Under the pieces are notes generated by a model. It made no database searches. It was not told the DNA's origin and worked only from the letters and a program-made list of their open reading frames with translations. A stretch of DNA of 39,832 nucleotides from contig CAIQWN010000033.1 of NCBI GenBank assembly GCA_903875555.1, positions 1 to 39,832 of the forward strand, written 5' to 3'. Each line of letters starts with the position of its first letter. Position 1 is the first letter of the stretch. The DNA comes from an uncultured bacterium (lineage in GTDB: Bacteria > Patescibacteriota > Minisyncoccia > Phycocordibacterales > UBA5272). Position numbers and translations under genes: made by a program. Shown in pieces: positions 8,238-19,247 of the stretch.

Positions 8238-9014
8238 GTGTTTTACTTTCTTTCGTTTATTTTTGGATCAGCTATTGGGAGTTTCGTTAATGTGATAGTT
8301 GCGAGACTTGGTGTTTCGTCAATAGTTAAAGGTAGAAGCAAATGTCTTCACTGTAATACAACTCTTTCTTGGAAGGAGTTGTTTCCAGTTTTGTCTTATG
8401 TTATTCAAGATGGTAAGTGTAAAACATGTGATTCTAAATATGGATTTGAGCATTTAGTTGTAGAAATATTTTTTGGCCTATTATTTATTTGCGTCTATTA
8501 TTTCATTTTACTTGGACAAATTGATAAAACTCATCAATTATTTTGGCTTATTTATTATACTTTGTTTTTTATCACATTAGGCACTGTTACTCTCTACGAT
8601 CTTAAACATAAAGTTATCCCAATAAATTATTTTCTAGGTTTTTTTACTCTAACTCTTATTGAATTGTTTTTGAGATATCAAAGTGAGGGAAATTTAGTTG
8701 TTTTTTTGTCTCCACTTGTTGTTTCTTTCCCATTTCTTTTACTTTTTGTTATGTCTCGTGGAAAGTGGCTTGGCTTTGGTGATGTACTTATGCTTATTGC
8801 TGTGGGTTCGTTTTTTGAATTGCTTCAAGGTATCACTGTGTTTTTCTTTTCTGTTTGGATAGGGGCGATAGTTGGTTTGATTTTGAAGTTTATAAATAAA
8901 AAAGTAAAAATGAAGACAGAGATACCGTTCATTCCATTTATTGCGGTTGCGATAATAATTGTTTTATTTACAGATACTGATGTTTTTGGTTTGATTAATG
9001 GACTGTCTTTATAA
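8238..9014 (+). CDS. pilD: Prepilin peptidase
   Basis: GSFVNV, CLHC and CKTC zinc motifs, YDLKHKVIP, GFGD, IPFIPFI; start uncertain (GTG 8238 vs TTG 8169). Confidence 0.92.
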   Translation: MFYFLSFIFGSAIGSFVNVIVARLGVSSIVKGRSKCLHCNTTLSWKELFPVLSYVIQDGKCKTCDSKYGFEHLVVEIFFGLLFICVYYFILLGQIDKTHQLFWLIYYTLFFITLGTVTLYDLKHKVIPINYFLGFFTLTLIELFLRYQSEGNLVVFLSPLVVSFPFLLLFVMSRGKWLGFGDVLMLIAVGSFFELLQGITVFFFSVWIGAIVGLILKFINKKVKMKTEIPFIPFIAVAIIIVLFTDTDVFGLINGLSL

Positions 9015-9040
9015 TTTTATTACGAGATTTGTATTCTAGG

Positions 9041-9398
9041 TGTCATTCCCGTGAAAACGGGAATCTAGGTTAGAATTAAATAATGAAAATGTATTATGTA
9101 TATTTGCTCGCAAGTGGAAGAAACGGAACTTTATATATTGGAGTTACAAATGATTTGAAAAGAAGAGTATATGAACATAAACAAAAGATTATAAAAGGAT
9201 TTACAGAAAAGTATAATGTAAATAATTTAGTTTGGTATGAACAAACAGAAGATGTAAACTCAGCAATTCAAAAAGAAAAAGAAATAAAAAAGTGGAATCG
9301 TAACTGGAAAATAGAGTTAATAGAGAAAGATAATTACGAGTGGAAAGATTTGTATGATGATTTATAGAACCTAGATTCCCGTTTTCACGGGAATGACA
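9041..9398. mobile_element. GIY-YIG gene bracketed by perfect 31-bp inverted repeats
   Basis: TGTCATTCCCGTGAAAACGGGAATCTAGGTT at 9041-9071 and its exact reverse complement at 9368-9398. Confidence 0.75.
9083..9367 (+). CDS. Small stand-alone GIY-YIG nuclease (UPF0213/COG2827-like)
   Basis: YVY...LYIGVTNDLKRRVYEH, FTEKY, conserved E, EKEIKKWNRNWK. Confidence 0.92.
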   Translation: MKMYYVYLLASGRNGTLYIGVTNDLKRRVYEHKQKIIKGFTEKYNVNNLVWYEQTEDVNSAIQKEKEIKKWNRNWKIELIEKDNYEWKDLYDDL

Positions 9399-9446
9399 AT
9401 ACAGTTTTCCACCTAAATTTAATTTTTCGTGTGTTAAAATTAAATA

Positions 9447-10043
9447 ATGAAGCCGTCTCTAAAAAAAATGAAAGCGTTTACTTTGATTGAGCTTTTGATG
9501 TCCACTTCTATATTCGTTCTAATGACAACTATTTTAATGGCAAATTATCCGAATTCTTTGGTTAGATCAAATCTATTTAATTTATCAAACAACACCGTAC
9601 TTCTCCTTCGAGAAGCACAAGTTAAAGGAAGTTCGATCGATGCACAAAGAAATGCTTTGGGTGTAGATACTGTTACTGGTTATGGTATTTATTTTGATAA
9701 AATAAATAATAAAATAATTTATTTTAATGACAAAGGAAATATGTCCAGTCCTGGAAATAAAGTTTATGACGCGGGTAACGGAGAAGCTATCTCTACTGTA
9801 AATATTGTGTCTGGATATCTCATAAATAAATTACGTATTAAAAATAACGATAGTTCAAATTCATACAGTGACACAGATTCACTAACCGTAACGTTTACAA
9901 GACCATCAGTAAAAGCTTTTTTTACCCCAATAACAAAAGAAGTTTGTGTAGAATTAACAACTAAGAAAAATCCAGCTTTAGTTAGAAGTATACAAGTTTA
10001 TAGTTTGGGGAGAATAGTTTCTGGTCCAAAAGAATGTCCATAA
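9447..10043 (+). CDS. Minor pilin (FimT/GspH-like)
   Basis: KA|FTLIELL, LREAQ helix, C-terminal GRI. Confidence 0.8.
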   Translation: MKPSLKKMKAFTLIELLMSTSIFVLMTTILMANYPNSLVRSNLFNLSNNTVLLLREAQVKGSSIDAQRNALGVDTVTGYGIYFDKINNKIIYFNDKGNMSSPGNKVYDAGNGEAISTVNIVSGYLINKLRIKNNDSSNSYSDTDSLTVTFTRPSVKAFFTPITKEVCVELTTKKNPALVRSIQVYSLGRIVSGPKECP

Positions 10044-14974: not shown

Positions 14975-15748
14975 ATGTATAACGAGTCAAAATCAATTTA
15001 TATCATCGTTGCATTTTTTATAGTAGTTCTAAGTGTTTCTGCATTTTTTTTGCAAGATAAAGTTGGAAATAAAACAAATACACCTGTTGCAGAAGAAGTG
15101 AAAGAAGCAACAAGTACTAATGTGTCAACGATCTCAAAAATTTTTAGTACAAAAACAGTGACAACTAAAATAAAAAGTACAACAATATTAACAGACAAAG
15201 CAAGTACAACATTAGCAACAACACAAATAACATCTATGAATGGAGAAAAGATAGAAATACCAGCAAACGTAAGTGGGGCAATATTAAAAACAAATTTAGG
15301 TGATATTGAAATTCAATTTTTAGATGCAACACCAAACACTGTTACAAATTTTATTTCCCTAGCAGCTTCAAAGTTTTACGATGGAGTTCGTTTTCATAGA
15401 GTTATCAGAGATTTTATGATTCAAACAGGCGATCCACTTTCAAAAGATATAAACAAAAAAATATATTGGGGAACTGGCGGACCAGGATATAAATTTCCTG
15501 ATGAAATAAGTGGCAAAGAAGAATATACTCAGGGGATAGTGGCCATGGCGAACTCAGGACCTAATACAAACGGTAGTCAATTCTTTATTATTACTGCTTA
15601 TCCTGGTTATCCGCTTCCTGTAAGTTATACTGTATTCGGTAAAGTTGTAAAAGGTATCGACACAGCTCTTAATATACAAAATGTAAAAACAGATAATGCA
15701 GATAGACCAATTACTGATGTAATATTGAAGGAGGTGATATTGAAATAA
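14975..15748 (+). CDS. Membrane-anchored cyclophilin-type PPIase
   Basis: N-terminal TM, Thr-rich linker, FYDGVRFHRVI..FMIQTGDP, MANSGPNTNGSQFFI. Confidence 0.95.
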   Translation: MYNESKSIYIIVAFFIVVLSVSAFFLQDKVGNKTNTPVAEEVKEATSTNVSTISKIFSTKTVTTKIKSTTILTDKASTTLATTQITSMNGEKIEIPANVSGAILKTNLGDIEIQFLDATPNTVTNFISLAASKFYDGVRFHRVIRDFMIQTGDPLSKDINKKIYWGTGGPGYKFPDEISGKEEYTQGIVAMANSGPNTNGSQFFIITAYPGYPLPVSYTVFGKVVKGIDTALNIQNVKTDNADRPITDVILKEVILK

Positions 15749-19136: not shown

Positions 19137-19247
19137 GGGTGTCATTCCCGCGAAAGCGGGAATCCAGTGTTAAGAATTTTAAATTTGTAATTTTTTAATG
19201 AAATACAAAATGAAACCTAGATTCCCGCTTTCGCGGGAATGACACCC
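19137..19247. mobile_element. Non-coding MITE-like derivative of the GIY-YIG element
   Basis: GGGTGTCATTCCCGCGAAAGCGGGAATCCAG at 19137-19167 and inverted copy at 19217-19247 (30/31), 49-nt AT-rich core. Confidence 0.75.

Follow-up and report, generated by a model that had tools for sequence, protein, structure and literature searches.

The Ssn family of GIY-YIG single-stranded DNA (ssDNA) endonucleases was described, with its SsnA/NTS (SRM) system, by Chenal et al. (2025, Nat Commun 16:2388, PMC11893778), and we rely on the main text of that paper for the following account. About half of the Neisseria dRS3 copies belong to a longer oriented motif, NTS (CGTCATTCCCGCGMAVGCGGGAATCYRG), which flanks homologs of the 94-amino-acid (aa) single-domain GIY-YIG gene ssnA (CDD family cd10448) across bacteria; a search with the degenerate motif, SRM, placed a repeat near 71% of homolog genes, and on both sides in 42%. 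Purified 94-aa SsnA binds CGTCATTCCCGCGMAVGCGGGAATCYRG as ssDNA only, does not bind RNA, and cuts a few nucleotides upstream (5') of the motif, leaving the reverse strand, double-stranded DNA (dsDNA) and RNA uncut; the three bases before the palindrome (GTC) are important for cutting, and the C after it for binding. Four homologs were biochemically active on their own repeats, and a Neisseria ssn knock-out raised transformation with NTS-bearing DNA approximately five-fold. Only 2% of the NTS copies in N. meningitidis (Nm) lie inside genes, and Rickettsia is among the SRM-rich genera. The NTS-ssnA-NTS arrangement was noted to resemble an insertion sequence (IS) and was compared with IS200/IS605 and with REP-associated transposases; domestication was put forward as a hypothesis, and it was as a hypothesis only that the nuclease was proposed to spread its own repeats. 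Here we describe a unit of the same layout, an ssn-type gene between two hairpin-bearing inverted repeats, at positions 9041-9398 of a 39,832-nt stretch of DNA from an uncultured bacterium (the window, the whole stretch analysed, which is contig C33 of genome G000; other G labels denote related genomes). Its parts are:

9041-9071, plus strand: left arm, with an SRM/NTS-type motif forward on the plus strand (TGTCATTCCCGTGAAAACGGGAATCTAG plus GTT) and a hairpin at 9045-9064
9066-9082, plus strand: inner-left subterminal segment CTAGGTTAGAATTAAATA, abutting the ATG, with a -10-like TAGAAT about 7 nt before the start codon
9083-9367, plus strand: ssn-type gene for a 94-aa single-domain GIY-YIG nuclease (PF01541 and homology)
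9368-9398, minus strand: right arm, with the same SRM motif forward on the minus strand and a hairpin at 9375-9394

The arms are 31 nt each and form an inverted repeat of 100% complementarity, so oriented that the unit runs from TGTCA to TGACA at its boundaries. Only 11 nt separate the end of the left arm from the ATG of the 94-aa open reading frame (ORF), and on the other side the right arm begins at the very next base (9368) after the TAG stop codon (9365-9367); within either arm an 8-bp stem is capped by a GAAA loop (ATTCCCGT-GAAA-ACGGGAAT). The initial annotation of this DNA had reported the inverted repeat, the 11-nt spacing, the stop-adjacent arm, the hairpin in each arm, the 94-aa GIY-YIG product and the position between pilD and pilin genes, correctly in every detail; it had also named the core as the Neisseria dRS3 motif, which is right, the match being more exactly to NTS/SRM, a longer motif with dRS3 inside it. 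The SRM search motif, as published, is matched exactly at 9041-9068 (plus) and 9371-9398 (minus), that is, in both the 5' and the 3' flank of the gene, where the flank test for Ssn genes calls for at least one SRM motif in each within 500 bp, and the critical 5' GTC and 3' C are present in the arms.

The hairpin 20-mer, with up to three mismatches, occurs four times in the window versus 0.01 expected, a count that none of 100 shuffles gave, and the longest exact inverted repeat flanking any of 200 random 285-nt genome intervals was 12 nt, showing that the 31-nt arms are not a product of chance. As ssDNA, single arms fold at -7.7 to -9.1 kcal/mol; the corresponding z is -4.3 to -4.5, and an equally good fold was reached by 0-1 of 200 shuffles. 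The fold also allows ATTCTA (9033-9038) to pair with TAGAAT (9071-9076) in an outer 6-bp stem around the left arm, which may be chance and has no equivalent at the right arm. The TAGAAT might conceivably double as a -10 promoter element; a consensus scan gave nothing above chance, with three promoter-like sites versus 3.8 +/- 2.2 expected and no terminators. Rfam, searched with positions 8900-9500 at E up to 10, returned chance-level matches only (best E 1.2, far below gathering scores).

The protein has a GIY-YIG domain (PF01541, E 7e-17, residues 3-77) and no second domain in Pfam, which returned for the ORF at 9083-9367 only GIY-YIG and the related T5orf172, with no HUH or Y1 transposase domain; at 94 aa it falls within the single-domain, <150-aa class of the Ssn family. 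Of 46 genomes of the genus Neisseria, 15 have a homolog of the protein; the alignments, which span residues 1-94 or 5-93, have E values of 1e-25 to 1e-35 and identities of 47-58%. To count as an Ssn protein in PMC11893778, a sequence has to match N. meningitidis SsnA by BLAST with E < 1e-10 and along 75% or more of the length, and the values here lie within those bounds, the comparison being with Neisseria-genus homologs and not with Nm SsnA by name. At 7 of 10 fetched Neisseria-genus homolog loci, GTCATTCCC-N8-GGGAATC hairpins lay no more than 250 nt from the gene. The first two Neisseria genomes searched, N. lactamica NS19 and N. mucosa, held no match to the window protein; a Pfam search of these two found UvrC-type genes and one other GIY-YIG gene each, the latter in N. 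mucosa lying in a 388-aa open frame. The N. lactamica NS19 record (L261, 1489-1764) includes a GIY-YIG protein of 91 aa that belongs to another small family, has no flanking NTS and is unmatched by the window protein at E 0.001, which makes it a useful negative control for repeat association.

The catalytic Tyr/Tyr/Glu set is present as Y7, Y18 and E65 in all 15 homologs of our alignment (four from the genus Neisseria), where the catalytic Arg and His (R28 and H32) and N84 are invariant as well; Y7, Y18 and E65 would correspond to Y6, Y17 and E64 of Nm SsnA, with numbering offset by one residue. A sequence search of PDB returned no chain at E up to 0.01. NCBIfam offered no family model for the protein, its only match being to TIGR01453 (group I intron endonuclease) at 17.4 bits versus a cut-off of 56.05, and neither the joined DNA-binding domain nor the model match expected of a group I intron homing endonuclease was found. 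Relatives are numerous (5,261 of 5,264 candidates at E up to 1e-5), and the best 120 of the 5,261, the window's own entries apart, are 62-82% identical and carry names from Omnitrophota, Kiritimatiellae, Ignavibacteriaceae, Rhodocyclales and several groups of the candidate phyla radiation (CPR).

We scanned 80 homolog loci from many phyla (57-72% identity) for correctly oriented hairpins with our own code. A forward hairpin lay within 120 nt upstream of the gene in 34 of them and a reverse hairpin within 120 nt downstream in 32; at least one side was thus occupied in 42 loci, and both sides in 24. Our search pattern found no hairpin at the remaining 38, a count that tells against the Ssn reading. 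The outer flanks of the same loci gave 40 hits in 269 kb, approximately 20-fold fewer per base than next to the genes. Independent code therefore reproduces the published gene-repeat association, and the enrichment of repeats near homologs that the initial annotation had proposed as a check is borne out. The locus is a member of the Ssn/SRM system, an already-described kind in a new host, and such novelty as the initial annotation implied is pre-empted by PMC11893778, the only paper that a full-text literature search found to tie dRS3-type repeats to GIY-YIG proteins. The main text of that paper makes no mention of Patescibacteria, and its supplements may list such members or multi-copy genomes.

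The host genome (714,378 bases in 45 contigs, 33% G+C, rated 96% complete) is that of a Parcubacteria-type bacterium of the CPR, judging by its LigA: Candidatus Taylorbacteria, Pacebacteria, Nomurabacteria and Paceibacterota supply the nearest named homologs, which are 66-67% identical. The window stretch is present in four lake-water metagenome runs of one study (word shares 0.97, 0.65, 0.42 and 0.07); unitigs (Logan) of the four break at the 31-nt arms, and the arm-spanning join is that of the original assembly alone. The genome has four full ssn copies, on C33 (the window copy), C31, C12 and C45, with 67-82% amino-acid identity, and a further copy in two parts, one at an end of C14 and one at an end of C31, which makes about five; the split copy is 100% identical to the window gene over 119 nt (C14 end) and approximately 99 nt (C31 end), and its arms differ. 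Pairs of full copies have nonsynonymous to synonymous rate ratios (dN/dS) of 0.04-0.18, with synonymous sites saturated (proportion of differences, pS, 0.60-0.68); they are old genes under purifying selection. Three of the full copies lie between exact inverted repeats, of 31, 30 and 35 nt. The arms are alike within a copy and different between copies, each of the three intact full copies having its own stem variant (GTGAAAAC, GCGAAAGC and TGCGAAGGCA), and the C45 copy keeps the same TGTCA...TGACA ends with its right arm interrupted. Three distant GIY-YIG paralogs in the genome have a flanking inverted repeat of 7 nt only. The ssn copies other than that of the window lie in unrelated gene contexts, with mixed orientation of their neighbours.

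The SRM motif is over-represented in its oriented NTS hairpin form, with 30 matches in the genome versus 0.47 +/- 0.72 (maximum 2) in 30 dinucleotide-preserving shuffles; the exact hairpin pattern occurs 47 times and a reversed control pattern not at all. Stem cells are Watson-Crick in 362 of 376 across the 47 hairpins, with double compensatory changes at four of the eight pairs. Most hairpins are intergenic, in both orientations relative to genes, and some lie within ORFs. All 14 pairs of adjacent arms are convergent, with TGTCA outward, and 11 of them are gene-less doublets of 60-103 nt. The inner-left segment CTAGGTTAGAATTAAATA of the window unit is found also in the C31 copy (CAGGTTAGAATTGAATT) and in several gene-less doublets, and because several doublet spacers open with cag-gttaagaatt, like the inner-left segment of gene-bearing units, they suggest that the doublets are internally deleted, non-autonomous derivatives of ssn units. 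Such a doublet is also present in the window:

19137-19247, no strand assigned: gene-less SRM doublet downstream of an MreB-like ORF, with two inverted GCGAAAGC-variant arms and a 55-nt spacer

As ssDNA it folds into one long hairpin (-40 kcal/mol, z -12.8), and its spacer opens cagtgttaagaatt, resembling the inner-left segment of ssn units. The flanks of the pairs show two recurrent 5' contexts, GGGT/GTCATT and WTT/GTCATT.

Two smaller modules are nested within arms of the family. One, of 26 nt (CGAATTAGCAAATTYGAAGCTTGGCA), occurs five times (C14:6954-6979; C9:7695-7720 and 8348-8373; C12:4991-5016; C43:1168-1193), always at one fixed point in the 3' stem of SRM arms, with GGG/TGG on one side of it and AATC on the other, and is found in, among others, the left arm of the second ssn copy. 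The other, of about 31 nt and with its own GTCGAC...GTCGAC palindrome, lies just after the loop of SRM arms (C45:51121-51206; C18:14608-14677 and 14981-15034; C12:4954-4985; C10:195-218); the break in the right arm of the C45 ssn copy is due to it, and several seemingly single hairpins face a composite arm that contains it.

The ORF upstream of the window unit encodes a prepilin peptidase, PilD (A24_N_bact and Peptidase_A24), those downstream have N_methyl pilin signals, and the ssn copy is co-oriented with this type IV pilus operon. Relatives in the genus and in the order keep the gene arrangement pilin, pilD, pilin, pilin. None of 29 pilD loci from relatives, all of them distant (PilD identity at most 49%), has an ssn protein match, and the gap from pilD to the next pilin is 432 nt in G000, of which the unit makes up 358 nt, versus about -33 to 138 nt in the relatives and 303 nt in one (estimated values). 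It is thus well supported that the unit reached the pilD-pilin junction by insertion into an otherwise conserved pilus operon, and the search for empty sites that the initial annotation had recommended gave a positive answer, albeit in distant relatives. An autonomous insertion sequence would be expected to show terminal inverted repeats, a target-site duplication and polymorphic or empty sites: inverted repeats are present here and the site is empty at 29 of 29 loci in these distant relatives, but neither a target-site duplication nor an empty site within the population was seen. The other ssn copies, with their unrelated surroundings, make it probable that the place in the pilus operon is incidental.

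Three observations at this junction may be added. The sole long gap among the relatives (L044, on G007:C1, approximately 303 nt) has no ssn match and no convincing hairpin. At L043 (G010:C4) the pilin-pilD pair is tandemly duplicated, and both of the PilD matches there have 47% identity to the query. In the window, a 19-nt direct repeat (18 of 19 identical, 9069-9087 and 9433-9451) takes in the start of both the ssn gene and the next pilin gene, from the final bases ahead of the ATG into the first codons, and the stretch 9399-9446 holds GTGTGTTA, which the C12 unit has in its inner-left segment; together these could be the remnant of an older unit.

Members of the family have also entered coding sequence. 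Doublets or arms lie in frame within five ORFs of four host-gene types, assigned by Pfam:

In-frame SRM doublets or arms: C11:12918-12977; C43:1116-1139; C19:21886-21963; C7:5716-5778; C20:8731-8802

The genes are a class-V aminotransferase (Aminotran_5), an MnmA-type tRNA thiolase, a small-domain methyltransferase and two RVT_1 reverse transcriptases, and the doublets are read through as peptides such as VIPAKAGIQKDLDSRFRGND and VIPAKAGIQ...LDSRFRGND. The inserted residues are missing from relatives' orthologs at 16 of 24 aminotransferase loci and 21 of 24 MnmA loci.

Within the genus, close homologs of the protein (>60% identity) occur in 3 of 25 genomes, namely G000, G009 (four copies) and G020 (one interrupted copy). 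Counts of exact-pattern hairpins across 41 related genomes are likewise uneven:

G000, 47; G029, 30; G013, 21; G009, 6
G015, 2; G020, 1; G003, 1; the other 34 genomes, 0

That an Ssn-family enzyme recognises hairpins of this sort in ssDNA form and makes its cut next to them, as the initial annotation had supposed for a GIY-YIG protein, is established by biochemistry on four homologs in PMC11893778. The window protein is in all likelihood an enzyme of this type, binding the extruded arm and nicking a few nucleotides 5' of TGTCATT. Monomer-sized and single-domain, it would bind its own flanking hairpin when, for instance, replication, repair or DNA uptake leaves that DNA single-stranded, would recognise the stem along with the GTC on its 5' side and the C on its 3' side, and would hydrolyse the same strand slightly upstream (5') of the motif, by a few nucleotides. 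Inversion of the arms would put the cleavable orientation on the top strand at the left boundary and on the bottom strand at the right one, and the predicted nicks would accordingly bracket the unit, on opposite strands at its outer edges. Host replication or repair might then process the nicks into copies of the unit, and of doublets, at new sites. That Ssn nicks multiply the unit and its doublets by this route is a proposal we regard as less likely than not.

Carried to its end, the proposal would make the unit a working mobile element of a new mechanistic class, in which a bare GIY-YIG ssDNA nickase cuts 5' of the arms and the host copies the unit into new sites, including essential genes in frame; this we judge possible, and rather unlikely. 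The corresponding picture of an active GIY-YIG transposon, with Ssn mobilising the whole unit and, in trans, the gene-less doublets, like an insertion sequence paired with a miniature inverted-repeat transposable element, can be entertained only tentatively. In its favor are the sharp TGTCA...TGACA boundaries common to the three copies with intact arms and kept by the C45 copy, the uniformly convergent arm pairs with TGTCA outward, the subterminal segments of gene-bearing units that doublets retain, the insertions in conserved genes and in the pilus operon, the patchy spread within the genus set beside identities of approximately 70% across phyla, and the one near-identical second copy, which points to recent duplication. 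Several results weigh against mobility. GIY-YIG enzymes are hydrolytic and to our knowledge have no strand-joining activity, so that the nuclease alone cannot be a transposase. The four full paralogs are old, with saturated synonymous sites and no recent burst, and target-site duplications, looked for in the flanks of the 14 pairs, were not seen. In G029 (99% complete, 10 contigs), whose 30 hairpins are mostly doublets, no ssn-type gene was detected, the sole GIY-YIG match being a UvrC-sized frame of 412 aa; this negative covers all but 386 bases, which could hide one copy. G013, whose 21 hairpins are again mostly doublets, likewise gave no ssn-type gene and only distant small GIY-YIG genes. 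Because these two genomes have hairpins with no ssn detected, it appears that hairpins persist, or arrive, without the gene. Nor was any polymorphism between empty and filled sites seen: the contigs of the four lake-water runs, which break at the arms, include none, and no joint, that skips the unit to connect pilD to the pilin, a result that speaks neither for excision nor against it, and a PilD scan of metagenome contigs found nine loci, all at 36% identity or less and none from a close strain, so that recent movement at this site is undocumented. The initial annotation had seen a selfish or domesticated repeat-nuclease unit whose enzyme both recognises and spreads the palindromes; recognition stands, through the biochemistry of the homologs, whereas spreading is at best a hypothesis, being offered as no more than that in PMC11893778 and having the hairpins of G029 and G013 against it.

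If the repeats no longer spread, Ssn may be a domesticated host nuclease for which the arms are now binding or regulatory sites, one that, for instance, trims incoming ssDNA in pilus-mediated uptake, as in Neisseria. The strong purifying selection on all copies, the co-oriented place of the window copy inside a type IV pilus operon and the roughly five-fold rise in transformation with NTS-bearing DNA in the Neisseria knock-out (PMC11893778) would all suit such a role; the unrelated contexts and mixed orientations of the other copies, which make the pilus location look incidental, the presence of multiple divergent copies in 0.71 Mb, unusual for a housekeeping function, and the in-frame doublets in essential genes, which look parasitic rather than useful, leave us skeptical of it, to much the same degree as of the spreading proposal. 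Less likely are three further explanations, one of them an assembly artefact. Another has a homing endonuclease gene homed into pre-existing palindromic doublets, the repeats being its target and not its ends. GIY-YIG is a classic homing-endonuclease fold, gene-less doublets could serve as empty targets, and there is the weak TIGR01453 match; that match is far short of its cut-off, however, the 94-aa protein has no DNA-binding domain, characterised homologs leave dsDNA uncut (PMC11893778), and arms that are identical within and different between the three intact copies fit co-evolving ends better than random pre-existing doublets, all of which makes homing improbable. The third would have the hairpins act at the RNA level, as terminator, stabiliser or processing site, with an incidental link to the gene. 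This would agree with the mostly intergenic positions, and the compensatory stem changes fit RNA structure too, but the hairpins have no T-tract and the scan found no terminator-like sites, no Rfam family matched below E 1, the hairpins occur in both orientations to genes and within ORFs and are approximately 20-fold denser beside homolog genes than further out, and Nm SsnA does not bind RNA (PMC11893778); we regard an RNA role as very improbable indeed.

The locus is a compact natural test bed for a question raised in the main text of PMC11893778, namely, whether Ssn nucleases multiply their own hairpins. One 0.71-Mb genome unites four divergent selected copies, a recent near-identical copy, 11 deletion-like doublets and insertions in conserved genes and the pilus operon, and it is this multi-copy, arm-matched, doublet-rich state that makes the mobility question testable; related genomes with hairpins and no detected ssn-type gene add to its value. 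The cognate protein/arm pairs of this one genome would moreover serve as ready specificity variants for the ssDNA-cutting tools proposed in PMC11893778.

Compared with the described SsnA/NTS system, the window unit is alike in the 94-aa length and single GIY-YIG domain of its protein, in the repeat-gene-repeat layout, in the flanking motif GTCATTCCC-N8-GGGAATC with its 5' GTC and 3' C, and in the 47-58% identity of the protein to Neisseria-genus homologs. It differs in that activity is reported for the homologs while the window protein is known from sequence alone, in the Parcubacteria-like 0.71-Mb host genome, in the approximately five gene copies instead of one, in the perfectly matched arms, each of its own stem variant, at three of the four full copies, and in the many repeats that are doublets, some of them in frame within genes. 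With the Neisseria dRS3/NIME repeats it shares the identical 20-nt core ATTCCC-N8-GGGAAT; dRS3 was defined without oriented flanks, whereas the functional unit is the longer oriented NTS.

Outside the Ssn family the resemblances are partial. The GIY-YIG homing endonucleases I-TevI and Seg are proteins of about 250 aa with separate DNA-binding domains that cut dsDNA; catalytic fold and selfish-gene behavior are common ground, whereas the protein here is a bare 94-aa domain that scores below the TIGR01453 cut-off. The palindromic elements of Rickettsia are short palindromic repeats that have entered conserved protein genes in frame and left these unbroken. The in-frame palindromic inserts described here are like them, by description only, and a full-text literature search returned no paper naming both a Rickettsia palindromic element and GIY-YIG; if the mobile-element reading were true, Ssn would be the long-missing mobilising enzyme for elements of this type. 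REP/REPIN sequences with their RAYT (TnpA-REP) enzymes also form a scattered family of short hairpins with inverted doublets, around a nuclease gene flanked by its own repeats and under purifying selection, but the enzyme here is a GIY-YIG one where theirs is an HUH Y1 transposase, it is not expected to work through a covalent intermediate, and there are several copies instead of one. IS200/IS605 elements, finally, are likewise very small and have ends recognised as ssDNA hairpins; there, a Y1 HUH enzyme of unrelated fold cuts both ends on one strand and rejoins them, whereas the arms of the present unit are inverted and its predicted cuts fall on opposite strands.

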